In this document: positions 1-42,455 of the stretch, piece after piece
Position numbering within the stretch: position 1 is the first letter of the stretch
How the letters are laid out: every line of letters begins with the position of its first letter
Origin: Cyanobacteriota bacterium
Lineage (GTDB): Bacteria; Cyanobacteriota; Vampirovibrionia; JBFMGH01
Assembly (NCBI GenBank): GCA_040752795.1
Contig: JBFMGH010000608.1
Span: forward strand, 110,325 to 174,324
Reading direction: 5' to 3'
DNA length: 64,000 nt
Translations under genes and position numbers: made by a program
Notes under the pieces: model-generated
What the model saw: the letters and a program-made list of their open reading frames with translations, nothing else
The model's database searches: none
What the model was told of the DNA's origin: nothing

Positions 1-563
1 ATGTTTGATCTTTCAATACGGTCTTGAACAGTTTCCAGTTCTTTTGTGGCTTGCTCAATTCTTCTGTCAAATTCTGTAACCCCGGCAAGATCATCAATAA
101 TTCTTCTTCTTTCTGTTGGTCCCATATTAATAATACCGGTAACATCACCCTGCATCATAACGTTGTAGCAGCCAGGTGAAACGTTGAAACCACTTAACTT
201 TCTATGTACATCTGACAATGTAGAGACATGGCCATTAATGTAGTATGTACTTGTGTAGCCATTAGAGCCTTCTTTAATTTTTCTTTTTATCTCAAATTGC
301 TCTTCATGATTATCCTCTTCTGCAAAAGCTATTCTAACAGAAGCCTCGCGTCGTTGATTGTTGTTATTTATTAAGTCTGTTAGTTTTTCAGCCCTGAGTG
401 TTCTAGAAGTTGAAAGACCTAAGCCAAAAAGCAGGCAGTCTATTATATTACTCTTGCCTGAGCCGTTGGGTCCTGAAATAGTTGTAAATCCATCTAAGAA
501 AGGTATGGTAGTTTTTGAACGGAAAGACTTAAAGTTATCAATTTCAATCTCTTTTATTCTCAT
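1..563 (-). CDS. smc: Chromosome segregation protein SMC, N-terminal part; the gene's 3' end runs off the window
   Basis: Reverse-strand translation from the ATG at 561-563 reads MRIKEIEIDNFKSFRSKTTIPFLDGFTTISGPNGSGKSNIIDCLLFGLG... This is a Walker A motif followed by the conserved SMC head sequence. The reading frame stays open to the window edge. Confidence 0.75.
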   Translation of the reverse strand, partial: MRIKEIEIDNFKSFRSKTTIPFLDGFTTISGPNGSGKSNIIDCLLFGLGLSTSRTLRAEKLTDLINNNNQRREASVRIAFAEEDNHEEQFEIKRKIKEGSNGYTSTYYINGHVSTLSDVHRKLSGFNVSPGCYNVMMQGDVTGIINMGPTERRRIIDDLAGVTEFDRRIEQATKELETVQDRIERSN

Positions 564-4088: not shown

Positions 4089-5060
4089 TTGGTTACTTTA
4101 ATTTCGCGTACTCTCGGAAACAAGGCAAACAGGGGCAAGAAAAATGTAGTTAACGGCAAACAAAGAAAGGAATACGAGGAAACAGAATCACTTTCAAACA
4201 GCATTCAAGATGAACACTTAACCCCCGGCTTTTTTGATGATTCAGTAAAAATTTATTTAAAAAAACTCTCTCAAATACCTTTATTAACTGCTAAAGAAGA
4301 GCTAGCTCTTGCTGAAAGAGTTGCACAAGGTGATCTCAAAGCAAAACGCCATTTGATAAGGTCTAATTTAAGGTTAGTAGTTAGTATTGCTAAAAAATAT
4401 GTTAATCGTGGTATGACTTTTATGGATCTGATTCAGGAAGGAAACCTTGGACTTATTAAAGCTGCTGAGAAATTTAATTATACTTACGGTTATAAATTTA
4501 GCACATATGCAACATGGTGGATAAGGCAATCTATATGCAAGGCAATTGCTGATCAATCTAAAGGCGTTAGGCTTCCTGTGCACGCTTTTGATACTATTAG
4601 CAAGATCACACGTATTAAAAGGCAGCTAGAGCTCAACCTTGACAGATCACCAAGTATATCTGAAATTGCTAAAGCCATAAAAATTGAAGCTGATAAAATT
4701 GAAGAGCTTTTAAATGTTTCAACATCTCCTATTTCTTTAGAATCACAGGTTACGATGAAAGATGGTAATTCGCTTACTGTAGAAGATTTTATTGAAGATT
4801 ACACTTCTTCACCTGAAGAGAGGCCGATTAAAGAAAATCTTAAAAATGATATTGATACAGTTTTAAATACTTTAAAAGGGCGTGAAAGTGGTGTTTTGAA
4901 TATGCGATTTGGTTTAAATGGCCAGCGAAACAAAACCCTGGAAGAAATTGGAAGAATTTATGGTGTTACCAAAGAGTGTATAAGACAAACTGAAATCAGA
5001 GCTATAAACAGACTGCGTAATTCTAATAAAGCAGCCCAGCTTTTAAAAGTCTATCTTTAA
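4089..5060 (+). CDS. RNA polymerase sigma-70 factor, RpoD family; short, group-2-like
   Basis: Regions 2-4 are recognisable: [14 protein letters not shown]...[19 protein letters not shown]...[12 protein letters not shown]...[30 protein letters not shown] start at 4089, preceded by the strong RBS AAAGGAGGG at 4071-4079. Confidence 0.85.
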
Positions 5061-5408: not shown

Positions 5409-6536
5409 ATGAAACCCGGAACCGGAGGGACAATATGGGACTCAAACAAACCTGAAGAAGAACTAAGTGAATTTGAACTCTTACTTAGAAAATATGACTA
5501 CAATTTCAATCGTGGGGATGTTATTAAGGGTATTGTAGTTGGTTATGAATCAAATGGTCTTTTAATTGATGTTGGAGCTAAAACAAATGCCTTTGTACCT
5601 CCAAGAGAAGTGGCTCCGGAAAAAGTTGATAAACTACAAGATTACATAGAAATAGGCGAAGAGAGAGATTTTTATATACTTAAAGAAGAAGATGACGATG
5701 GGCAAATAACACTTTCTCTTAAGCGTGTTGCTCTTGCGTACAGCTGGTCTAAACTTGAAGAACTTAAGAATGAAGATGCTGTTGTTGAGTGTGAAGTAAT
5801 GTCTGTCGTTAAAGGTGGAATTCTGGTTGATGTTATGGGCCTAAGAGGCTTTGTTCCAGCAAGTCACCTGAGAGTTAGATCATCTGATGCTATGGTCGGA
5901 CAGGTATTGCCATTAAAGATTTTATCTATAGAACCAAAGAAAAACAACCTTATAATGTCTCATAGAAAAGTAGTTTCAGAGCAACAGGCAGAGCAAAGAA
6001 AAGATACTTTTGAAAAACTTGAAGTCGGTGAATCTGTAATGGGTGAAGTGGTTAGATTAGCTGATTTCGGAGCCTTTATAGATATAGGTGGAATAGATGG
6101 GTTGCTTCCTCTTTCACAAATGTCCTGGCGATGGGTTGATCACCCTTCGGACATATTAAGCGTGGGTGATCGTATAAAAGTTGAAGTCATTGGTATAGAT
6201 TATGAGAAACAACGAGTAAGCCTTAGCTTAAAGAGCCAGCAACCAGATCCATGGGAAGAAATTTCAAAAATGTATAGTGTCGGGCAGAAACTTCCAGGAA
6301 AAGTCACCAGAATAAAACATTTTGGGGCATTCGTTGAGGTTTATCCCGGTGTTGAGGCTTTATTGCCTAGCAAAGAAGTTATTGAGTATGAGAAAGATAA
6401 CAATACAAAACTTTCTTTAGGGCAAGAAATTACTACTACTATAATCAGGTTTGTTCCGGAAGATAGAAGAATGAGCCTCAGTTATACTGGCCAGCTTGAT
6501 GAAGATGAAGAATTACCTCCACCACCAATGGATTAA
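5409..6536 (+). CDS. rpsA: 30S ribosomal protein S1, short 3-4 S1-domain form
   Basis: Repeated S1 domains (GDVIKGIVVGYESNGLLIDVG..., GESVMGEVVRLADFGAFIDIG..., GQKLPGKVTRIKHFGAFVEV). GGAGG RBS at 5392-5396. Confidence 0.8.
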   Translation: MKPGTGGTIWDSNKPEEELSEFELLLRKYDYNFNRGDVIKGIVVGYESNGLLIDVGAKTNAFVPPREVAPEKVDKLQDYIEIGEERDFYILKEEDDDGQITLSLKRVALAYSWSKLEELKNEDAVVECEVMSVVKGGILVDVMGLRGFVPASHLRVRSSDAMVGQVLPLKILSIEPKKNNLIMSHRKVVSEQQAEQRKDTFEKLEVGESVMGEVVRLADFGAFIDIGGIDGLLPLSQMSWRWVDHPSDILSVGDRIKVEVIGIDYEKQRVSLSLKSQQPDPWEEISKMYSVGQKLPGKVTRIKHFGAFVEVYPGVEALLPSKEVIEYEKDNNTKLSLGQEITTTIIRFVPEDRRMSLSYTGQLDEDEELPPPPMD

Positions 6537-8796: not shown

Positions 8797-8967
8797 TTAA
8801 GAAGATTTTTGCTTTTCTGTTTCATTTACTATTCCTAAAATGGCTCCACAGGAACTGCAATAAACTATTATAGCCGAGGTTTTATAAAACTTTTTTTGTT
8901 GTGTGGAAAAATTCTTACCTTCACATTTAGGGCACATTGGAAAAACCCTGGGCGTTGGAATAGCCAT
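8797..8967 (-). CDS. Small Cys4 zinc-ribbon protein, 56 aa; absent from the ORF track because it is under 60 aa
   Basis: ATG at 8965-8967 is preceded by AAAGGAG (reverse complement of 8971-8977). Translation MAIPTPRVFPMCPKCEGKNFST...VYCSSCGAILGIV has two CxxC pairs. Confidence 0.4.
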   Translation of the reverse strand: MAIPTPRVFPMCPKCEGKNFSTQQKKFYKTSAIIVYCSSCGAILGIVNETEKQKSS

Positions 8968-9109: not shown

Positions 9110-9559
9110 TTAATTGGAGTTAACGCTTTCTTCCTCTTCTTCTTGAATTACATCAATCTGGATAATATCTTCACCTAATTGAATATCTGGTGCTTCGTCA
9201 TCGTGTTCTTCAGGTAGACGAGCCTCTCTGATTGTTGAGGCCCCTGTCCTCGACTTTGCTCTGTTGACAAGTTTTGTTTTATGTTTTCTGATCTGGCGTT
9301 CTACTTTGTCAGCTAACAAATCTATACTTGCATACATGCTTTCAGAAGCTTCCTTGGCCTGAATTCTTCCTTTTTTTAATACTACACTAACTTCTGCTAC
9401 CTGATTGTTAGTGATACTGGGATTTCTTTCTACGCTTAAAATAGCGGTAATCTCCATTATCTGGTCAAATAATTTATTTATTTTACCTAGCTTTTCAGCT
9501 GCATATTGTTTTAGAGCTGGTGTCAATTCTATATTACGACCTTTTATGCTAAGGCGCAT
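9110..9559 (-). CDS. hpf: Ribosome hibernation-promoting factor (sigma-54 modulation protein/S30EA family) with an acidic C-terminal tail
   Basis: MRLSIKGRNIELTPALKQYAAEKLGKINKLF...VSVVLKKGRIQAKEASESMYASIDLLADKVERQIRKHK. GGAGG RBS 7 nt upstream of the ATG. Confidence 0.85.
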   Translation of the reverse strand: MRLSIKGRNIELTPALKQYAAEKLGKINKLFDQIMEITAILSVERNPSITNNQVAEVSVVLKKGRIQAKEASESMYASIDLLADKVERQIRKHKTKLVNRAKSRTGASTIREARLPEEHDDEAPDIQLGEDIIQIDVIQEEEEESVNSN

Positions 9560-9851
9560 TTAGATTCCTCCTTAAGCGTTATATTAAGAGCTTTGATGAT
9601 TATAACCAATTATATTTTTTTCCTCAACGAAAAATTTAAAAATTTTTAAGTGAGAGGTTTTGAGGTTTTAAAAAAAATATTTGTGTTTTAGTTCCTGAAT
9701 TCTTTGATAATAAGATCATTTTTGTGCTTTAAAGTTCCTGCAATTTAACAAAAAAATATTTTAAAAAAGATAATTAGTATTAATTTGTATTCAATTTAGC
9801 TCTTTAGTAACTGAAAACGGTATTCTTGCAAAGCTTTATGAGACAAGAGAG

Positions 9852-9895
9852 ATGATCCATATGAGAAAAATTCTCATGTAGATCATCTAAATGGA
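9852..9895. promoter_or_regulatory. 17-bp imperfect inverted repeat (GATGATCCATATGAGAA / TTCTCATGTAGATCATC); candidate operator or hairpin in the hpf upstream region
   Basis: Two mismatches between the arms. Contains a perfect inner palindrome ATGAGAAaaaTTCTCAT. Confidence 0.35.
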
Positions 9896-10140
9896 GTATT
9901 AAGAAATATTAATTTTTCCCGATATCTATTATGTAATCCAAAACACACGCATCCTCCTCCCAACCCAACCAAACCAAACCAACGTACATTGTCCTCCTCC
10001 TAATCATCGTCCTCCTAACACACACTTAGTATGTCGAAGATATTTTACTACCGAACCTGAATGGATCGGTTTTTTTTTGCTTTAATAAACAGGCAGTTAA
10101 TTAAACTTCAAGGACTGTTTTTCTAGTTGTGTATTTAACT

Positions 10141-10773
10141 TTAGCTTTTTGGTGTTTTGTAAGCATCCACGGCTGAATACAAACTAATTACTCCAGTTGC
10201 AAAAAATGCTTTTCTGGCGGCAATTATGTTACCTGTTAATGCAAACTTTGCTGCTATTAAAGCTGTTGCCATGGATCCTGTAAATAAACCAAGACCTTTT
10301 AAAACCTGGCCGTTAAGCATTTGACCGATACCGGGTAGTATATATGAAGCAATAGATTCTCCAGTGTTTCTTGGATTCTTGGAATCTTTGTCGTTATATT
10401 TGAAAGCATTAATTACTGAATATAAAGTGAGCCCGATGAAACCAGCTAGAGCTGTAAACCCTGCTAAACTTTTTGATTTTAGAGCTAGTTTCTCAGTTTT
10501 TAATAATATTTTAGGATCTGCTTTATCTAGAATAGAGCTAATATGGCAGGATTTTAATAATTTATTTGCCATATATTCAAGCCCGAGAGCACTGGCAAAT
10601 ATTTTTATGCCTTTTGAGCTTTCACCATTTAACATTTGGCCGCTCCCCGGAATAAATAATGATGATATTGCAGGGTAATAATTTTTCTTCTCTGTTTTAT
10701 TTTGCCCTGAAAAAGACAAGTTCCTTTTTTTTGTGAATGTTGCAGGAGGAAGAGTATGAATAGATTCAATCAT
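10141..10773 (-). CDS. Predicted membrane protein with an internally duplicated PGxGQMLNG...KG(L/I) motif
   Basis: Two copies of (I/L)PG(S/I)GQMLNG(E/Q)..KG(I/L). followed by hydrophobic stretches. No family assigned. Confidence 0.5.
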   Translation of the reverse strand: MIESIHTLPPATFTKKRNLSFSGQNKTEKKNYYPAISSLFIPGSGQMLNGESSKGIKIFASALGLEYMANKLLKSCHISSILDKADPKILLKTEKLALKSKSLAGFTALAGFIGLTLYSVINAFKYNDKDSKNPRNTGESIASYILPGIGQMLNGQVLKGLGLFTGSMATALIAAKFALTGNIIAARKAFFATGVISLYSAVDAYKTPKS

Positions 10774-18473: not shown

Positions 18474-20438
18474 TTAGAGTCTTCTCATATCTTTATCAGC
18501 TATTATAAAAAGATTTATAAGGTCATCCAGCTCTTTAGCTCTTCTCTGATAATAACTTATATCATCTTCTAATTGTCTGATAAGTTGTTTCTGTTCTTCA
18601 ATTTTATTAATATTATCTTTCATATATTTTTGCAGTTTAGCTTGTGCGCCCTGAGCATCTGAAAGAACTTCAGACATTGAAATGCCCATTGCTTCCATAG
18701 TTTGCCTGATTATTTGAGCTCCGGTTTGTCTTGTAACACCTGGAGGCAAAGTAGAAACCAGTTTTATAAGAGTTTCAACATTTGAATTAAATAATTCTAC
18801 CCTTCTACGAGTGGCCCTTTCATCTCTTCTAGGATCAAAATCTCTATCTCTTGACATATCATTGTACGACCTGTCATCATATCTGTGATAATCTCTTGAT
18901 GAATCGTGATAAAGCCTATCATCATATCTGTGATAGTCGCGAGATGATTCCTGATAAGATCTATCATCATACCTGAGAGAATCTCTATGTGGTTCATGGT
19001 AAGATCTGTCATCGTGCTTGTTGTAACCTCTATCATCAGGTCTATAAGGTTCAGGATGTGTTTCACGATAGCCTCTATCATCAGGTCTATAAGGTTCAGA
19101 ATGTGTTTCACGATAGCCTCTATCATCAGGTCTATAAGGTTCAGGGTGTGTTTCACGATAGCCCCTATCATCAGGTCTATAAGGTTCAGGGTGTGTTTCA
19201 CGAGGCCTGTAGTGATCAGACTGATCTTGCGCATAATGTTTACGAGGTTCAGGTTGAGGTTCGTGATAGCTTCTATTGTCAGGTTTGTAAGGTTCAGGTT
19301 TAACAGGTGGAGATGTTATATGAGGATCCCTCTCTTGTGATACATTATAGTCTTTAGGCTGATATTGATCAAGATCTAAAGGAGACTTTGAAGGTTCTTG
19401 AGGTTTAGCATACTGTGGCTCAACTCCCGGGTGAATAGAGTCAAGATCAATAGTTCTTTGAGGTTCCTGTCTCCTAGGAATCTCTTCCCATTGCTGATTT
19501 TGATTCATTTGTTGTTGTGGGTATCCTATTTGAACTTCTTGTGGTTCATAACTATCGTAAGTCGACATTTCTTGCTTATGCGGTTGATATGGCTCAGGTT
19601 CATACTGCTCTGGTTCTAATTGTTGATTGTAATCATCCTCCTGATAGGAGTATTGATTATAACCAATATTTGCTTGAGCATGAGAAGCATGGGCAGGTTG
19701 TGGAGTATATTCCTGGTATTCCTGAGTCTCGTAAGGTTGATATTCTGTAAACTCCTGGGGATAATCTTCTGTTTCAGGAGGATCCACCTCTTCAAGTGCT
19801 GGCTGTTGTTGCATCTCTTGATAAGCTCTCCCCTGAGAATATCCTAATTGAGGGGGCTGATATTCTGGTACATCAGAATCATCTTCAAATTGTTGAATAT
19901 CATCACTAAAGTCATCATAAGATTGTTGATTGTAATTAAAATCATCTTGAGCCTGTTGCTCATATCTTTGAGGGTCAAAGCTTTGTGGATCATAAGATTG
20001 CTGATCATATGACGGCTGATCATATGATTGTTCATTGTAATCAATAGACATAGGGGTTTCTTCTGACATCATTTGTTCTTCAATTGGTGCAAAACTTCCG
20101 TATTGGGGAGTATCCGTAGTAGTAGTCATACCGTCTAGGTCAGGTAATTCTGAAGTCATTTCGGGCTGAAATTCAGTGGGTTCAAGAGGACCAGGTTCTT
20201 CATCATAGTGCATTTCTTGAGATCCAAAATCCATATGTGAAATAGTTTCCAGACCATGATTAGCATCAGGTTGATGAGCAGCATAAGGATCAACAGGTAC
20301 TTCTTGATAAGTTGATTGAGCAGCTGCTTGACCTGTTTGAACTTCAGGGTCTTGGGTTTTTAAAGCCTGAATGATTTTCTTACCTAATCCATCTGGAAGT
20401 TTACTTTGTCTTTTAGAATCCACTAATATGCTCTCCAA
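18474..20438 (-). CDS. Large intrinsically disordered Q/Y/D/P/E-rich repeat protein (654 aa) with a short structured C-terminal domain
   Basis: About 540 aa of low complexity (SYDQPSYDQQSYDPQSFDPQRYEQQ). Four or five tandem copies of ETHPEPYRPDDRGYR, then RYDDRSY..SSRDYH repeats. Ends with a ~110-aa non-repetitive, helical-looking domain (VELFNSNVETLIKLVSTLPPGVTRQTGAQIIRQTMEAMG...). Confidence 0.6.
   Translation of the reverse strand: MESILVDSKRQSKLPDGLGKKIIQALKTQDPEVQTGQAAAQSTYQEVPVDPYAAHQPDANHGLETISHMDFGSQEMHYDEEPGPLEPTEFQPEMTSELPDLDGMTTTTDTPQYGSFAPIEEQMMSEETPMSIDYNEQSYDQPSYDQQSYDPQSFDPQRYEQQAQDDFNYNQQSYDDFSDDIQQFEDDSDVPEYQPPQLGYSQGRAYQEMQQQPALEEVDPPETEDYPQEFTEYQPYETQEYQEYTPQPAHASHAQANIGYNQYSYQEDDYNQQLEPEQYEPEPYQPHKQEMSTYDSYEPQEVQIGYPQQQMNQNQQWEEIPRRQEPQRTIDLDSIHPGVEPQYAKPQEPSKSPLDLDQYQPKDYNVSQERDPHITSPPVKPEPYKPDNRSYHEPQPEPRKHYAQDQSDHYRPRETHPEPYRPDDRGYRETHPEPYRPDDRGYRETHSEPYRPDDRGYRETHPEPYRPDDRGYNKHDDRSYHEPHRDSLRYDDRSYQESSRDYHRYDDRLYHDSSRDYHRYDDRSYNDMSRDRDFDPRRDERATRRRVELFNSNVETLIKLVSTLPPGVTRQTGAQIIRQTMEAMGISMSEVLSDAQGAQAKLQKYMKDNINKIEEQKQLIRQLEDDISYYQRRAKELDDLINLFIIADKDMRRL
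18860..19210. repeat. Tandem 45-bp (15-codon) repeat array inside the disordered-protein gene
   Basis: Near-identical 45-bp units cctctatcatcaggtctataaggttcagRRtgtgtttcacgatag begin at 19027, 19072, 19117 and 19162. More diverged 45-bp units lie at 18862-19020. Confidence 0.8.
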
Positions 20439-25907: not shown

Positions 25908-28900
25908 ATGGTTAGCATCTTTTTAAAATGGTTTAAATCTTTATTCATTTTATGTTTATTAGTAATGACTGCAAATAATTTTACTTATGCTTATGACAAC
26001 CTTTCTAAAGAAGAAAAAACGATTTTTTACTCTTCTAATATTCTTGGAGAATGCTCTTTTTTAATCTCAGATGTATTGTCTAATAGCCAGATCATGGGCG
26101 TTGCAAATTTAGATGCTAAACTGGAGTATGTTAAAAAGCAACTTACACTTGAACCTCCTCTTGTTGAAGATTTAAAAGTTTCTAAAAAAACATTACAAAC
26201 ACTAAAAAAATTTATTGAAGAAGTTAATGAATCCTATAATGAAAAGACATTTAAACTAAAAAAACTAGAACAGGCTAATAAAACTTTTGGCGATTATTCT
26301 GTAGAGCTAAGAGAAGACATTAATAAGTTGTATGGCCCTAAGTATACCTGGCTGTTTGATACAGGTTTCCTTGTTTCTTTTACCAAAGCTTCAATGATAT
26401 CAGATTATAAGAATAAACTTGTATTGTTAGAGTACAAATTTCTGCTTGATTATGTGCCCTATAATATGCCTACCAGTGTAATAAGCTCGTTATCATCTAT
26501 TGCTACTGTTAAAGATGAGGAATTAACACAAAATCAGGTAGAGATACTAAAAGAAGCATCTGATAATATGATATCTTACTTTACAAGCCCCGAGACATAT
26601 TCGCCACCGGCTACTTTAAGAGATCTTGTGGGGAAATGGGAAGGAAGACTGGCCCCTCCTAATGGAGATTATCATAAAGCAAATATTTCAATTACCCCAG
26701 ATATGAGTGCTATATTAAATGTTGAAGGCATGTTTAAAGATATGCCAGTGAATGACTTAACAGTAACTCAGAGTTTGGTTAGCTTTAATATTAAACCCTT
26801 TGCTGATGAACAGCTTATAATAAGATTTTCTGGAAGAATAGTCGATGATGTATTATCGGGCGAAGCTATTGATGTATCTGGTAAAAAAGGTTTATGGCAA
26901 TTTTTGAAAACCCCACAGGTTGATCTAAGTGAATTAGTTAATGCTGAAATAAAAACAGAACCAACAGCCCTTGATAAATTATCAGGTGTTTGGAAAGGTA
27001 AAATACTCGAACAAGATGGAGCAATATCTAATTTAACCCTTCGATTCAATATAGTTGATGATAGTGTGATGTTTGTTGAAAATCCTAACCATAAAAAGAC
27101 TCTTAAGCTTAATTCTGTAGCTGCTAATGATAAGGCAGTCAGGTTTAGCATTTCTCCTGATAATGGTGATATCAATATTACATTTATGGGTGAAATTAAG
27201 GGTAGAATATTAGAAGGGAATGCAATAGGAACAGATGGCAATAAGGCCTATTGGAAAATTATTAAAGTTGAAGATAAACTTACTAAGCCTCAATTAAAGA
27301 GTGATGCTGGTTTTTTTTTCTTGGATCATTTATGTGATCCTATTGTAGACAATTCCTTTATTGAAGGCTTCACGTTAGTTTCTAAAAATATAATTGTGCC
27401 GCCACCTAAAATTAATGAAGGCAAATATAAAGGCCATCTTATTTTTGAAGATGGCTCTAGGGCAGGGCTTGTTCTTGTTTTGTCTAATAAGCAGTCCAAG
27501 ATGTACCTTTTTAGCAAGGAGGATAACTCAAAAATATCTTTAGATATTGATTTAATGAATATTACAGATAGAGAAATAACAATAGATACAACAATAGATG
27601 GCAATAAAGATACTCTGGTTAAGTTTAAAGGCAAAGTTTTTGGAGGATATATTTATGGCGATGCTGTAAATATTGCTGGTGAAAATCTTAAATGGGAACT
27701 TATGGCTGTTGATAAAGCAGATACATTTTTAAGCAATGTTAATTCTTCAAATGTAAAAAGAATAAAAGGCTTATGGAATGGAATGGTGACCTTCTCTAAC
27801 TTGTTTGAGGTGCCTGTAAAACTTGTTATTTCAGATGATGAAACAAAAATGTACTTCGATGACGCAAAAATCTTACTAATATCAGATATTATTCTTGATG
27901 GGACATCGGTTAGCTTCGTTGCAAAGAATGAAGCTGATCCCATGCAAACCATAACCTTTAATGGCAACCTAGAAGAACAGAGTATAACTGGAAAAATAAC
28001 TACAGTTAATGGTCTGGGGCTTGATGTGGTGCTTTCTATGTCTGAAAAATATCAAGAAGATCCATTGAAAGGTATCTGGGCAGGGAGAATTATGCTAGAT
28101 AATGCTTCTGCTGATATTGTATTTGACTTTGTAGAAGATAAAAAGAAAGTTTATATTGATGACTCTAGAGCAGAATCAGGTAGAGTAGAACTATTAATAA
28201 GTAATTTAGTTAAAGATTCTAAAGGAATTAAATTTACAGCTAATACATCTAAAAGCCCTTCAAAAATTGAATTTGTTGGTACTTTTGATAGAGAACTTCT
28301 CAAAGGATCTGCAAAAAATCAGATACAGGGATCTAATAAACTTAATTGGGAAACTTCTAAATCTAATCTAAGTAAGTATGATCCCGAAAGTATTGAGATA
28401 GTATTACATTCTGAACCTGAAAATGCAGGGTATAAAAAAACGTTTTCTTTTCTTGATGAAATGGATAACCTTAATGACAGCAAAATAGATAATGAAACTA
28501 ATGATAAAGTTACTGAAAAAGAAGATAAAACAACTTCAACTATAGATAAAAAACCAGATGAAACTGAAATAAAAGAAAATAAAACAGATGAAATCCTTTC
28601 TCAAAAAGTGATAAATGCAGATGAGATAGATAAAACCAAACAAGATAAAAAAGATAAAGATGTTGATATTGATGAAAGTTCTTCAGAAAAAGAGATTACG
28701 AAAAAAAATGATAAAGAAAGTAAGATAGATAAAAAGATAAAAAAAGATAAATCTAAAAAATCAAGTGAAAATATCAATAAAGAGGAAAATAACAGATCTT
28801 CAGATAAGAAATCAAAGAAAACTAAAAAAACTAAATCTAAAAAAGAAAAACCTGACAAAGTAAAATCAGAAAAAGATACTAAAACAAAGGATAAAAGTAA

Positions 28901-29807
28901 ATCTGAAAAAGAAGATAAGTCTAAACAGTCTGAAGAAGAGAAAATGTCTGATAATAAAAAACCTTCGGATAAGAAATCAAAGAAAACTAAGAAAACTGAA
29001 TCTAAAAAAGAAAAACCTGACGAAATAAAGTCAGAAAAAGATACTAAAACAAAAGATAAAAATAAATCGGTAAAGGATGATCAATCTAAACAGCCTAAAG
29101 AAGAGAAAATATCTGATGAAGATCTGTTTGAAAAATCTAAAATTAAAAAGGCCAGAGAAAATTTAAATTCTGAAACACCTAAAACAGATAAATTAAAAGA
29201 AAAGAAAAAGGATAAGAAAAAAAGAAGATGGCCTTTTGGACGCAAGGACAAAGATAAAACACAAAAAAATAAGCAAAAAGAAGTCGATGTAATACAAGAA
29301 AATCCTGTTAAAGTTGAAGATAATACTGAAGTAATACAGGAAGAGACCTCTGATAAAGATGATAATAAAGAGGAAAATATAAAAAACCCTGAAGAAGATA
29401 AAAGCATTGAATCCAAAGATTTACAGATAAATACTGAAGATAAGCAAATAGAAGAATCTGATGAGATACAAGAATCTAAACAAGAAGATATGCAAGTAGC
29501 TATTGGAGATGAGCTTATTGGTAAATGGGTAGGAGAATTATTTAATCCTCAGGGTGATAAAGGGGAGATATTAATAGATCTTAAGAAATCTGATAGCTAT
29601 ATCTATGTTAATAAAGAAGGTGAAAAAGTTCCGTTTAAATTACTTGACTTAAAAATAAATGGTAAGAATATATATTTTAAAATAAAGCCATCACCTGATT
29701 CAGACTATGGCATAATATTTGATGGGTCTTTAATACAGGGAGTATTGTCCGGAACAGCAACTGACCCCACAGGCAACAAAGGCAAATGGCATGCGCAAAA
29801 GCCCTGA
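25908..29807 (+). CDS. Giant secreted modular protein (1299 aa): signal peptide, six ~95-aa GxWxG...GxKxxW modules, and a K/D/E-rich low-complexity spacer
   Basis: N-terminal signal (MVSIFLKWFKSLFILCLLVMTANNFTYA). Module starts: LVGKWEGRL, LSGVWKGKI, IKGLWNGMV, LKGIWAGRI, LIGKWVGEL, plus one degenerate. Each module ends G.A.D..G.K..W. The ~350-aa spacer is rich in K, D and E. Confidence 0.6.
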   Translation: MVSIFLKWFKSLFILCLLVMTANNFTYAYDNLSKEEKTIFYSSNILGECSFLISDVLSNSQIMGVANLDAKLEYVKKQLTLEPPLVEDLKVSKKTLQTLKKFIEEVNESYNEKTFKLKKLEQANKTFGDYSVELREDINKLYGPKYTWLFDTGFLVSFTKASMISDYKNKLVLLEYKFLLDYVPYNMPTSVISSLSSIATVKDEELTQNQVEILKEASDNMISYFTSPETYSPPATLRDLVGKWEGRLAPPNGDYHKANISITPDMSAILNVEGMFKDMPVNDLTVTQSLVSFNIKPFADEQLIIRFSGRIVDDVLSGEAIDVSGKKGLWQFLKTPQVDLSELVNAEIKTEPTALDKLSGVWKGKILEQDGAISNLTLRFNIVDDSVMFVENPNHKKTLKLNSVAANDKAVRFSISPDNGDINITFMGEIKGRILEGNAIGTDGNKAYWKIIKVEDKLTKPQLKSDAGFFFLDHLCDPIVDNSFIEGFTLVSKNIIVPPPKINEGKYKGHLIFEDGSRAGLVLVLSNKQSKMYLFSKEDNSKISLDIDLMNITDREITIDTTIDGNKDTLVKFKGKVFGGYIYGDAVNIAGENLKWELMAVDKADTFLSNVNSSNVKRIKGLWNGMVTFSNLFEVPVKLVISDDETKMYFDDAKILLISDIILDGTSVSFVAKNEADPMQTITFNGNLEEQSITGKITTVNGLGLDVVLSMSEKYQEDPLKGIWAGRIMLDNASADIVFDFVEDKKKVYIDDSRAESGRVELLISNLVKDSKGIKFTANTSKSPSKIEFVGTFDRELLKGSAKNQIQGSNKLNWETSKSNLSKYDPESIEIVLHSEPENAGYKKTFSFLDEMDNLNDSKIDNETNDKVTEKEDKTTSTIDKKPDETEIKENKTDEILSQKVINADEIDKTKQDKKDKDVDIDESSSEKEITKKNDKESKIDKKIKKDKSKKSSENINKEENNRSSDKKSKKTKKTKSKKEKPDKVKSEKDTKTKDKSKSEKEDKSKQSEEEKMSDNKKPSDKKSKKTKKTESKKEKPDEIKSEKDTKTKDKNKSVKDDQSKQPKEEKISDEDLFEKSKIKKARENLNSETPKTDKLKEKKKDKKKRRWPFGRKDKDKTQKNKQKEVDVIQENPVKVEDNTEVIQEETSDKDDNKEENIKNPEEDKSIESKDLQINTEDKQIEESDEIQESKQEDMQVAIGDELIGKWVGELFNPQGDKGEILIDLKKSDSYIYVNKEGEKVPFKLLDLKINGKNIYFKIKPSPDSDYGIIFDGSLIQGVLSGTATDPTGNKGKWHAQKP
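28804..29125. repeat. ~165-bp (55-codon) tandem duplication within the K/D/E-rich spacer of the giant protein
   Basis: Two near-identical DNA units encode SDKKSKKTKKTKSKKEKPDKVKSEKDTKTKDKSKSEKEDKSKQSEEEKMSD and SDKKSKKTKKTESKKEKPDEIKSEKDTKTKDKNKSVKDDQSKQPKEEKISD. Confidence 0.75.
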
Positions 29808-29844: not shown

Positions 29845-32064
29845 TTATTTGCGTTTGTGCTTTTTAGACTTGGTTTTTTTAACACTTTTAGTTTGAATGG
29901 CAGTACCAACTTGCTGTCGTTTAACATTTACAACATCACTAATGTCATATAATGATTTAATTATTGAATCAAAATGCTGTTTACCGCTTACTTCCACAGA
30001 CATTTCTATAACAGCAGTATTATCCTGCCTTGTTTTTACTCCTGCGTAAGTAACGTTAGTATTTAAATCCGCTATCTTTCCTAAAATGTCTTTAAATACT
30101 CCAATCCTGTCTATTACTTCAACAATAAAGCTTACAGGGTAATTTTTTGCTTCTGAAATCTGGCTTTTTTCTGACCATGTAATATTCATAACTCTTTCAG
30201 GAGCTACTTTAGATAAAGATTTACAATCTTCTCTATGAACACTTATACCTCTTGATCTTGTTATAACACCTACTATATTCTCGCCTGGCAAAGGGAAACA
30301 GCATTTAGAAATATGATAAAGCATGCCTTGTAGTCCATCTATGTTTTTTTCGGATTTAGAGGCTTTGCCAGATGCATATCTTGGTTTGTTTCTTAGAACT
30401 TCCAGCGATTCTTTGTCTTCTTTTTTAATTTTATTAGTAACTTTAGGGGTATTGATTTCACCATATCCTATAGCCGCATAAAGATCATCCAGGGCGTTGT
30501 AATTCAGTTGATTAGCAATTTCAAGTAATTTCCCTGATTTACTGACATCTTCGAGTTTCTGCTTGCTTAGTTCTGCTTCAAGAAGCATTTTACCCTGTGA
30601 GATATGCTCTTCACGACGATTTTTCTTGAACCAGCTTCTTATTCTGCCTTTGGCACTGTTAGTAGCGACAAGGTTTAACCAATCTAGCCTGGGGTGCGAA
30701 TTTTTACTTGTTAATATTGAGACAATATCCCCACTCTGAAGTGGAGTATCTATTGGTACCATTTTGTTATTAACAAGAGCTCCTACGCAGGTATGGCCTA
30801 CTTCCGTATGAACTCTGTAGGCAAAGTCTAAAGGGATAGCGCCTTTAGGTAAATCGTATACATCTCCTTTAGGGCTGAATACAAATACCTCATCTCTGAA
30901 AAGGTCTAGCTTTACGGAATCAACGTATTCTTGTGCATCTTTTACATCTTGTTGAAATTCAACCAGCTTTCGTAGCCATACAAATTTTTTATCCAGCTCA
31001 TTATTAGCTGCAATACTACCCTTCTCTTTGTATTTCCAGTGAGCAGCAATACCGTATTCGGCAATTTGATGCATTTCTTGTGTTCTTATTTGTACTTCTA
31101 GTGGTTTGCCATTTGATCCCATAACTGTTGTATGTAGTGATCTATATAGATTACTTTTGGGCATGGCTATGTAGTCTTTAAATCTTCCAGGTATTGGTTT
31201 GAATGCTGAGTGGATTACTCCTAAAACTTCATAGCATTCTTTTTCGCTGTCTACAATAACTCTTACTGCACTAATATCATATAACTCCTGGAATGTTTTA
31301 TTTTGAAATGTAATTTTATTATAAATACTAAAATAATTTTTCGCTCTACCATATACAGTGGCATTAATGCTATGTTTTATAAGTAGCTCCTGAAGTTTAT
31401 CTAGAGAGTTCTTAATAGCCTCTTCACGGTCTTTCTTGCTTTGAGAAACAAGTTGTGCAATTTCAAGATATTCTTTAGGGTGAAGATAGTTCAGGCACAG
31501 GTCATCCATTTCTGATTTAAGTTTCCACATACCTAACCTGTTTGCAAGAGGAGAGAATATTTCCATTGTTTCTTTTGCGATTCTTTTTTGTTTGTCTGGT
31601 GTCATGTGATTAAGAGTTCTTATATTGTGAAGTCTATCGGCTAGCTTTAGCAATATAACTCTTATATCACTCGCCATAGCAAGAAACATTTTCCTGAAAT
31701 TTTCTGCCTGTCTTTGTTCTTTAGATCTAAATTCGAATTTACTAAGTTTTGTTACCCCATTAACGAGGTTTGCGATTGTTTCACCAAACTCTTTTTCAAG
31801 AATTTCAGGTGTTACATCGGTGTCTTCTACGGTATCATGTAGCAAAGCAGCTGCAATAGTTTCTGTATCTGATTGAAACTCTGTTAATATACAAGCAACT
31901 TCGACTGGATGAGTTATATATGGTTCTTCACTGGCCCTGTATTGACCATCATGATGTTTGGCAGCAAAATCAAAAGCTCTTTTAATTGTGTCTATATCTT
32001 CTGTTAATCTATTTTGTTCTGCTAGAATATTTTCTAAACTTTTAAATAAAGTACTGTTTTCCAT
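29845..32064 (-). CDS. rel: Bifunctional (p)ppGpp synthetase/hydrolase (RelA/SpoT homolog: HD, synthetase, TGS and ACT domains)
   Basis: HD motif (HDTVEDT), synthetase motif (DISAVRVIV...RFKDYIAMPKSNLYRSLHTTV), TGS domain and C-terminal ACT. Confidence 0.9.
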   Translation of the reverse strand: MENSTLFKSLENILAEQNRLTEDIDTIKRAFDFAAKHHDGQYRASEEPYITHPVEVACILTEFQSDTETIAAALLHDTVEDTDVTPEILEKEFGETIANLVNGVTKLSKFEFRSKEQRQAENFRKMFLAMASDIRVILLKLADRLHNIRTLNHMTPDKQKRIAKETMEIFSPLANRLGMWKLKSEMDDLCLNYLHPKEYLEIAQLVSQSKKDREEAIKNSLDKLQELLIKHSINATVYGRAKNYFSIYNKITFQNKTFQELYDISAVRVIVDSEKECYEVLGVIHSAFKPIPGRFKDYIAMPKSNLYRSLHTTVMGSNGKPLEVQIRTQEMHQIAEYGIAAHWKYKEKGSIAANNELDKKFVWLRKLVEFQQDVKDAQEYVDSVKLDLFRDEVFVFSPKGDVYDLPKGAIPLDFAYRVHTEVGHTCVGALVNNKMVPIDTPLQSGDIVSILTSKNSHPRLDWLNLVATNSAKGRIRSWFKKNRREEHISQGKMLLEAELSKQKLEDVSKSGKLLEIANQLNYNALDDLYAAIGYGEINTPKVTNKIKKEDKESLEVLRNKPRYASGKASKSEKNIDGLQGMLYHISKCCFPLPGENIVGVITRSRGISVHREDCKSLSKVAPERVMNITWSEKSQISEAKNYPVSFIVEVIDRIGVFKDILGKIADLNTNVTYAGVKTRQDNTAVIEMSVEVSGKQHFDSIIKSLYDISDVVNVKRQQVGTAIQTKSVKKTKSKKHKRK

Positions 32065-41924: not shown

Positions 41925-42455
41925 ATGAAAAAAGTTTTGTTGATAATTATTCCGTTGTTGTTAATTATTATAATTTACTTTTCTTATATTTTATTGAATA
42001 ATACCCCCAAAAAATCTGAAGTAAACCTTGGTGAATACGTATACGCTGAAGACAACTCAGTTAATGATGTCAATGAAATGCTAAAAACATCAATTAATGG
42101 AGATAGACCAGTAATATTAATGTTTTATTCTCAGTGGTGTGGCTCATGCAGAAAAATAAGACCAGCATATGAAACGGTTAGAGATGAATATTCAGATAAA
42201 GCTGTTTTTATAGATGTTGATGTAGATGAAAATCCTGATTTAGCGGGCCAATTTAAAGTATTTTTTGTACCATCTTTATTTGCATTAAATACTGACACTA
42301 AAGAAGTATATGGCTTGCCTGCACATAAAATGGCTACTGTAACGTCATTCAAATCAGTTTTAGATGACCTTTTTGATACTTTTACTACAATAAAAACTGG
42401 CAAGCAAAAAGATAAAGAGCCAGAGGCAGAACCTGAAAAAAATTCAGAGAACTAA
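41925..42455 (+). CDS. Membrane-anchored thioredoxin-family protein (WCGSC active site)
   Basis: N-terminal TM helix, then a thioredoxin fold VILMFYSQWCGSCRKIRPAYE. Confidence 0.7.
   Translation: MKKVLLIIIPLLLIIIIYFSYILLNNTPKKSEVNLGEYVYAEDNSVNDVNEMLKTSINGDRPVILMFYSQWCGSCRKIRPAYETVRDEYSDKAVFIDVDVDENPDLAGQFKVFFVPSLFALNTDTKEVYGLPAHKMATVTSFKSVLDDLFDTFTTIKTGKQKDKEPEAEPEKNSEN

Follow-up and report, generated by a model that had tools for sequence, protein, structure and literature searches.

In the 64,000-nt stretch of Vampirovibrionia DNA analysed here (contig JBFMGH010000608.1, hereafter the window), hpf, also called raiA, is separated from the next open reading frame (ORF) on the minus strand (10141-10773) by an intergenic gap of 581 bp. 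All the features described in the original prediction, which had been made from the letters of the sequence, lie within this gap: an inverted repeat, a C/A-rich tract with three CCUCC motifs, a mini-ORF on the minus strand preceded by GGAGG, and a hairpin followed by a run of T. They had been assembled mainly into a structured leader of hpf and, read from the other strand, into a small RNA of anti-Shine-Dalgarno (anti-SD) character. We consider it probable that the region is an independent noncoding RNA gene on the plus strand, divergent from hpf, whose product would act in trans through anti-SD-like seeds, CCUCC being the core of the anti-SD tail of 16S ribosomal RNA (rRNA).

The C/A-rich tract with its three CCUCC motifs is present as described. 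It consists of an 18-nt direct-repeat family that carries CCTCC (copies at 9950-9967, 9990-10007, and 10005-10022), is depleted in G (3 G in the 73 nt from 9950 to 10022, counted by reading), and lies in a region, 9900-10019, across which the GC skew falls to −0.72 and −0.80. The word CCTCCTCC, for which 0.46 occurrences would be expected in the 64-kb window, is found four times, a number that none of 100 shuffles reached; two of these copies are at this locus and the other two inside long ORFs. Apart from its terminator, the body of the RNA is predicted to be mostly unpaired, with unpaired probabilities of 0.44-1.0 for the CCUCC motifs, most of them ≥0.6, under either of the two 5′ ends that we assumed.

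To compare the region among relatives, as had been proposed along with the original prediction, we fetched and aligned the hpf loci of close HPF homologues, which gave 12 sequences, one of them (L098) a near-duplicate of another (L096). This comparison recovered the element at the same position in related Vampirovibrionia loci: in 11 distinct loci, a homologous element occupies the same place and orientation, divergent from hpf, with HPF proteins 68-91% identical to that of the window. By database label, the HPF homologues P0006 (78% identical) and P0037 (48% identical) belong to Vampirovibrionia and Melainabacteria, respectively. The shared layout runs, from 5′ to 3′, from the palindrome TGAGAA-N3-TTCTCA through a block ending in ATCATCCATATGGAGTATTAAGAAATRTTAA, 7-8 variable nt, CGAT, and about 9 nt to GTCCTCCTAACACACACTTAGTATGTCG; a hairpin with T8-T10 comes next, after a linker of 9-22 nt. 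The GTCCTCCTAACACACACTTAGTATGTCG core is identical in 11 of the 12 aligned sequences, save for one difference in the length of an AC repeat, and L098 departs from it at two bases. Across the same 11 genomes, the coding DNA of hpf has a mean nucleotide identity of 73%, and at most 5 consecutive nt of it are invariant. A noncoding stretch is thus better conserved than the adjacent protein gene and is therefore under direct selection at the nucleotide level.

Within this layout, the element comes in two forms. Five species have a single-seed form with one CCUCC and a predicted RNA of 70-80 nt; the window and five others have a three-seed form, in which 70-100 extra nt are inserted ahead of the last seed and bring two further CCUCC motifs together with C/A-rich spacers resembling decayed copies of the seed module. 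On a neighbour-joining tree of HPF, which is too weak to interpret, single-seed and three-seed forms are intermingled. An nhmmer profile of the element, run against the window and 99 loci, matched once at each orthologous locus, revealed no further copy within the window, and did not find the element in L092, an HPF relative with a different gene context, or in distant hpf loci (Bacillota, other phyla). When metagenome contigs were scanned with the 20-mer TCCTCCTAACACACACTTAG, only two further copies appeared, both from the species of L001.

Two of the loci call for a comment. L001 (CAZFBA010000008.1) is labelled "uncultured Gammaproteobacteria bacterium", and this label is probably wrong because its hpf locus is syntenic with the Vampirovibrionia loci and its HPF is 77% identical. 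L098 is a low-coverage contig, and its copy (22-202, minus strand) differs from that of L096 (1972-2152, minus strand) by two core substitutions (TTAGTATGTCG to TTACTATATCG), which are either sequencing errors or real variation, and by a compensatory change from C-G to U-A in the terminator stem.

The strand of the gene is indicated by its terminator. A hairpin of −6 to −10 kcal/mol stands immediately before U8-U10 on the plus strand in all 12 sequences; in the window, the hairpin and T9 are both present, though at 10050-10078 and so slightly downstream of the ~10040-10070 first proposed. The suggestion that the plus strand encodes an anti-SD-like small RNA ending in this hairpin gains from the fact that the terminator has the plus-strand orientation, with its pairing kept, in every orthologue. 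Its stem base, ACCG/CGGU, is common to all orthologues, and the upper stems vary in sequence. With a covariance model that was built from three sequences and then used to align all terminators, standard pairs occupied 97% of the stem cells, against 6-52% when the partners were slid, and four stem cells had changed on both sides in a compensatory manner. Several of the pairs are G-U, which on the other strand would be A-C mismatches; in a minus-strand reading, moreover, the hairpin has a run of A before it and no U-rich sequence behind it. Since there is no plus-strand gene upstream that the terminator could serve and hpf points away from it, a plus-strand transcript must start inside the gap.

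The surroundings of the element point in the same direction. The gene downstream is PyrK-like and on the same strand at five loci, DUF5683-like and on the opposite strand at three, and unrelated in the others; because it varies in both identity and strand, the element is best described as a free-standing RNA gene, not a leader or a shared terminator. Its single constant neighbour among the distinct orthologous loci compared is hpf. This gene has a canonical promoter of its own, TTGAGG-17-TATAAT. It comes to within about 40 nt of the ATG, implies a transcription start some 30-35 nt before that codon, and is kept, spacer length included, in 10 of 10 close relatives. Because this conserved promoter sits between the element and hpf, the element lies upstream of the probable hpf transcription start, and the structured leader envisaged at the outset is not supported. 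The coordinates of all features are collected in Table 1.

Table 1. Features in and around the hpf upstream gap of the window (positions count from the first nucleotide of the window)
Feature	Position	Strand	Remarks
hpf / raiA	9110-9559	-	149 aa, Ribosomal_S30AE domain only; divergent from the RNA gene
hpf promoter TTGAGG-17-TATAAT	9599-9627 (9627-9599 in hpf direction)	-	10/12 consensus match
Inverted repeat	arms 9850-9867 / 9871-9888		18 nt, 16/18 complementary, 3-nt loop, −20.5 kcal/mol
Nearly invariant upstream block AGATCATCTAAATGGAGTATTAAGAAATATTAA	9880-9912	+	no indels among orthologues
GTATTAAGAAAT	9896-9907	+	invariant 12-nt run
TAAGAAAT	9900-9907	+	candidate −35 of a sigma-28-like promoter
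Mini-ORF	9909-10007	-	32 codons, or 26 if begun at the ATG at 9989; not regarded as a gene
CCCGATAT	9918-9925	+	candidate sigma-28-type −10 element
CGAT	9920-9923	+	invariant in every orthologue, 10-11 nt after the TAAGAAAT box
Predicted small RNA	9933-10078	+	~146 nt; 5′ end placed by the sigma-28-like promoter, possibly as far upstream as ~9850
Seed copy 1 CCUCCUCC	9953-9960	+	only in three-seed orthologues; predicted unpaired probability 0.99-1.0
C/A-rich, nearly G-free spacer after seed copy 1	9961-9985	+	
Seed copy 2 CCUCCUCC	9993-10000	+	predicted unpaired probability 0.97-0.98
Invariant core GTCCTCCTAACACACACTTAGTATGTCG (RNA: GUCCUCCUAACACACACUUAGUAUGUCG)	10009-10036	+	28 nt
Seed copy 3 UCCUCCU, inside the core	10010-10016	+	predicted unpaired probability 0.63
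Rho-independent terminator	10050-10078	+	stem 10050-10057 / 10063-10070 (ACCGAaCC / GGaUCGGU), loop UGAAU, T9 10070-10078

Upstream of the RNA, the inverted repeat that had been reported as 17 bp long at 9852-9895 is indeed present, with slightly longer arms. Among the relatives, only its core TGAGAA-N3-TTCTCA (9862-9876) is common, in 10 of the 12 sequences and not in L096/L098, so the repeat is kept only as a core palindrome of 5-7 bp, located some 57-71 bp before the proposed start of the RNA. Compared with shuffled flanks, the lower stem was significantly complementary in just two sequences, those of the window and L096 (Fisher combined p = 0.06), and for the 5′ block RNAalifold gave a single 5-bp consensus hairpin of −1.4 kcal/mol with 0 compensatory pairs; on these two results, a conserved 5′ stem-loop was dropped. 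The inverted repeat more likely belongs to regulatory DNA upstream than to the RNA itself, and its core palindrome is a candidate binding site for a regulator. As for a regulon, neither the upstream box nor the palindrome was found elsewhere in the 64-kb window.

Between the palindrome and CGAT, spacing is nearly fixed over 80 nt, with one 1-nt indel and 3 nt in the degenerate palindrome of L096, and length changes of more than 3 nt all fall downstream of TGT at ~9933. Because of this rigid spacing and the absence of RNA structure, the 80 nt upstream of ~9933 look promoter-like. A sigma-70-type promoter was not found at any conserved alignment position. The consensus for sigma-28 (FliA/SigD) is TAAAGTTT-n11-GCCGATAA (PMC2859248), and the window has TAAGAAAT-n10-CCCGATAT and L001 TAAGAAAT-n11-GCCGATGT; the pattern of the element can be written as TAAGAAAT, 10-11 nt, and nCCGATAn, with CGAT and TAAG invariant and at sigma-28-like spacing. 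Judged by these boxes, a sigma-28-like promoter with a start near 9933 seems to us an even call, and in single-seed species such a start would put the seed at the extreme 5′ end of the 70-80-nt RNA. The alternatives are a start at ~9905, from a SigB/SigF-like ATTTAA-N12-GAGTAT, or one upstream of the palindrome; the SigB-like promoter ranks below the sigma-28-like one because its boxes change in L096 and TAAG and CGAT do not. A loose scan of the window for the sigma-28 pattern was uninformative. We also observed that the one variable base of the upstream box at 9896-9913 on the plus strand (ATATTAA / ATGTTAA) keeps a U-A or U-G pair in a possible hairpin, AGUAUU-AAGA-AAURUU, a weak hint that the box is transcribed. 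Small RNAs driven by sigma-28 exist in FliX/MotR of E. coli and CjNC1/4 of Campylobacter (PMC10578931, PMC4626219); what links the element with them is the consensus resemblance of its boxes only.

How would such an RNA act? Under the preferred reading, transcription would start near 9933 from a promoter that is not of the sigma-70 type but sigma-28-like, with the palindrome as an upstream regulator site, and the exposed CCUCC(U) seeds would pair, on other mRNAs, with ribosome-binding sites of the GGAGG type and the flanks upstream of these. The candidate pairing segment, UUGUCCUCCUAACACAC, would engage the ribosome-binding regions of these mRNAs and block translation initiation, in the manner of the C-rich seeds in RsaE/RoxS or of the motif in Yfr1. 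The invariant flank UAACACACAC may confer specificity for sites preceded by GUGUGUUA-like sequence, and in the long form the additional seeds, with their G-poor C/A spacers, would provide further pairing sites and leave the RNA single-stranded. Within the window, AGGAGG stands at Shine-Dalgarno (SD) distance before only five long ORFs, two of which are hpf and the sigma-70-family gene at 4089. Duplex energies calculated against 55 crude translation-initiation regions of the window revealed no outstanding target, and hpf itself is not evidently a conserved direct target, because its pairing with the RNA extends over only 7 bp here and, as read from the sequence, 5 bp in L001.

Among described RNAs, the closest in kind are Yfr1/Yfr10 (RF01116), which share with the element a small size, a Rho-independent terminator, and an unpaired, perfectly conserved C-rich motif with CUCCU followed by CACAC (ACUCCUCACAC in Yfr1, CUCCUAACACAC in the element), and the lineage that hosts the element is the sister group of the cyanobacteria. 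The UCCU of Yfr1 is required for target pairing, and some of its predicted sites are at the SD sequence (PMC2190773, PMC6778093, PMC12873609). However, the Yfr1 undecanucleotide ACUCCUCACAC occurs neither in the window (≤1 mismatch) nor in the 99 loci (exact matches), where the element has CCUCCUAACACAC instead, and the RF01116 covariance model matched neither 9500-10200 of the window nor 3570-3780 of L001, whether at the gathering score or at E ≤ 10. Synteny differs as well, with guaB - yfr1 - trxA on one side and a position between hpf and variable genes on the other; in the window, a thioredoxin domain was found in one gene only, at 41925-42455. Yfr1 measures 54-69 nt and consists of a 5′ stem-loop, an unpaired linker of 16-20 nt, and a terminator, whereas the unpaired region of the element is much longer and its seed is multiplied in half of the species. 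A single-seed RNA starting after CGAT would have 70-80 nt and no 5′ stem-loop, and one starting at the palindrome would have a linker of more than 40 nt. Common descent with Yfr1 is possible: the element would work like Yfr1, and membership in that family is not demonstrable.

Further comparisons place the element more loosely. RsaE/RoxS-type small RNAs of Gram-positive bacteria carry several exposed C-rich motifs that pair with G-rich SD regions and repress translation; their motif is CCCC in hairpin loops, however, while that of the element is CCUCC in linear C/A-rich spacers, and there is no similarity in sequence or Rfam family. The raiA motif RNA of Bacillota and Actinomycetota is likewise an independently transcribed, conserved noncoding gene beside raiA/hpf, but it is ~200 nt long with a P1-P8 fold and pseudoknots, in contrast to an element that is predicted to be mostly unpaired and belongs to another phylum. 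Of the raiA motif genes, 66% lie upstream of raiA, in an orientation that varies between species (PMC10861870). The element adjoins hpf, divergently, in 11 of 11 orthologous loci. Resemblance to Cyano-1/Yfr2 (RF01701) is confined to the minus strand, on which GUGUGUGUUAGGAGGAC recalls the 5′ consensus of the model, UGUGUGAGGAGU; the corresponding match in L001 (14.8 bits against a gathering score of 41, E = 4.4) falls on the strand that lacks the terminator and arises because that strand is the complement of the Yfr1-like motif. Rfam as a whole gave no family match, the raiA motif included, neither for the entire window at gathering thresholds nor for 9500-10200 and L001 3570-3780 at E ≤ 10, where only chance-level hits appeared.

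Several observations weigh against this interpretation or parts of it. Expression, strand, and 5′ end are read from sequence. The sigma-28 match is partial (4/8 in the −35 octamer and 6/8 in the −10 octamer), and a Pfam scan of 50 ORFs of the window returned neither flagellar genes nor fliA; complete flagellar gene sets occur only in some Melainabacteria (PMC4040986). The nearly invariant upstream stretch of 31 nt exceeds what a promoter usually needs and could be part of the RNA. Covariation in the terminator is modest, with double changes in two of seven pairs, because the stem base ACCG/CGGU is conserved. On the side of the targets, the extended complement of the seed has no match in the 64-kb window beyond the locus itself, and the short pairing with the hpf ribosome-binding site is a further point of this kind.

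The main rival, to which we give a small but real chance, accepts the same plus-strand RNA and makes it a decoy or sponge that titrates an RNA-binding protein or a partner RNA bearing GGAGG, by analogy with CrcZ-type CA-motif RNAs that titrate Hfq/Crc or with the pairing between Yfr1 and Yfr2. A seed number ranging from 1 to 3 and G-poor, unstructured spacers would be the repeat architecture typical of titrating RNAs, and the invariant core of 28 nt is longer than a usual base-pairing seed. In cyanobacteria, Yfr1/Yfr10 do pair with a complementary Yfr2 motif (PMC6778093). However, 5 of the 11 species carry a single motif, which is poorly suited to titration, no complementary RNA of the GUGUGUUAGGAGGAC type was found in the window, and no candidate binding protein was identified.

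It is somewhat less likely still that the RNA mimics the 16S anti-SD tail and is functionally coupled to hpf; it could also share an ancestor with Yfr1/Yfr10. Upon induction, the exposed CCUCC motifs, one to three in number, would cover strong GGAGG ribosome-binding sites throughout the genome and lower translation initiation while HPF parks ribosomes. If this were true, the RNA would be an RNA arm of ribosome hibernation, and a shared ancestry with Yfr1/Yfr10 would make this type of small RNA older than the split between Cyanobacteria and Vampirovibrionia.

Two explanations that dispense with a trans-acting RNA appear improbable. According to one of them, the element is a cis-acting leader or attenuator of the next plus-strand gene, which in several relatives encodes a PyrK-like oxidoreductase subunit; in L001, L086, L088, L090, and L091, this gene does follow on the same strand, 130-300 nt past the terminator. 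In the window, L082, and L087, however, a gene on the opposite strand intervenes, and L081 and L096 have unrelated genes downstream; besides, no alternative anti-terminator pairing is conserved, and the U8-U10 tract and stable stem look constitutive. The other, which we rate no higher, sees only a DNA-level element, that is, regulator sites and a generic terminator without a functional stable RNA. The rigidly spaced upstream block, two palindromes, and the lack of RNA covariation there would fit such an element. Yet the most conserved 28 nt lie between the putative promoter and a strand-specific terminator for which there is no upstream plus-strand gene, large insertions are tolerated right beside this core, as in transcribed sequence and unlike an array of protein-binding sites, and the core is 290-470 nt away from the hpf promoter.

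The reading that had stood in the foreground of the original prediction, a long, structured 5′ leader of hpf on the minus strand whose SD sequences and translated mini-ORF sequester ribosomes or act as a leader peptide, is contradicted by the comparative data and, as far as the aligned sequences go, largely refuted; we regard it as very unlikely. Cyanobacterial homologues of hpf (lrtA) are known to have long 5′ untranslated regions, and in the window the mini-ORF does exist (9909-10007 or 9909-9989, minus strand), with GGAGG before each start and 26-32 codons. What fails is its conservation. Besides the canonical hpf promoter ~40 nt before the ATG and a hairpin and T-run oriented for the other strand in all orthologues, the mini-ORF is absent in L001, L086, L093, L096, and L098 (five of the six single-seed relatives); elsewhere, only MYVGL is common before frameshifts in L081, L087, and L082, and L088 has no ATG. 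MYVGL is shared because the junction of the module is conserved at the nucleotide level, just as the minus-strand "SDs" exist because they are the complement of the plus-strand seeds. The G-quadruplex potential ascribed to the minus strand was rejected too: there are GG and GGG runs only, and these are missing, together with the C/A tract of which they are the complement, from the single-seed forms, that is, from 5 of 11 relatives. Finally, a type I toxin-antitoxin pair, in which the plus-strand RNA would be an antisense repressor of a hydrophobic minus-strand peptide (MYVGLVWLGW...), can be set aside as the least likely of all, since the peptide, although it begins hydrophobically, has a strong SD, and overlaps the antisense RNA gene in the window, is conserved neither in length nor in frame nor in presence, and the RNA is conserved where the ORF is missing.

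Some observations concern the genes around the element. Among the HPF proteins compared (P0001-P0054), those of this clade are short, with 140-151 aa, the S30AE domain only, and an acidic C-terminal tail; more distant HPF homologues from Vampirovibrionia/Melainabacteria have 187-222 aa and include the PF16321 dimerisation domain, and the RNA gene was seen only beside the short form. Directly downstream of hpf, at 8797-8967 on the minus strand, is a Cys-rich ORF of 56 aa (CPKC...CSSC, zinc-ribbon-like) without a Pfam match, and ORFs of 50-56 aa were called downstream of hpf in L083, L084, L086, L087, L090, L091, L092, and L093. On the other side, the minus-strand gene at 10141-10773 encodes 210 aa with a weak match to DUF5683 and an internal repeat (GSGQMLNG / GIGQMLNG), and in the window it is located between the RNA gene and the PyrK-like gene. 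In L082 and L087, a gene of 169-214 aa, for which no Pfam match was recorded, was called on the opposite strand at the same position, and in other relatives the PyrK-like gene lies directly downstream of the RNA gene.

Farther away, the window is rich in genes connected with stress or translation: a STAS-domain protein is encoded at 1840-2283, ribosomal protein S1 at 5409-6536, RelA/SpoT at 29845-32064, and a sigma-70-family factor, which starts with TTG behind an AGGAGG SD, at 4089-5060. At E ≤ 1e-5, Pfam gave no match for two long ORFs, one of 1299 aa at 25908-29807 on the plus strand and one of 654 aa at 18474-20438 on the minus strand.

Taken together, the element is a new and well-conserved family of predicted small RNAs, of a mechanistically familiar kind, in a lineage for which our literature and Rfam searches found no described small RNA (Vampirovibrionia/Melainabacteria); neither Melainabacteria nor hpf is mentioned in a survey that covered the RNA structures of 202 cyanobacterial genomes. 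The element stands out in two respects: hpf accompanies it at every orthologous locus, and some species have multiplied its seed module. There is also a caution in the way it first appeared, as the complement of an anti-SD-type small RNA mimics a "strong SD plus mini-ORF" and is prone to being miscalled as a leader peptide. To our knowledge, the function of the raiA motif RNA is still unknown, and a second, independent pairing of a noncoding RNA with raiA/hpf would make this association look less accidental. The clear seed offers a handle for predicting targets in complete genomes and for reading metatranscriptomes, and the one-seed and three-seed variants form a natural series on the role of seed multiplicity in small-RNA action. 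For these mostly uncultured, non-photosynthetic relatives of the cyanobacteria, the RNA described here would be a strongly supported first small-RNA candidate.

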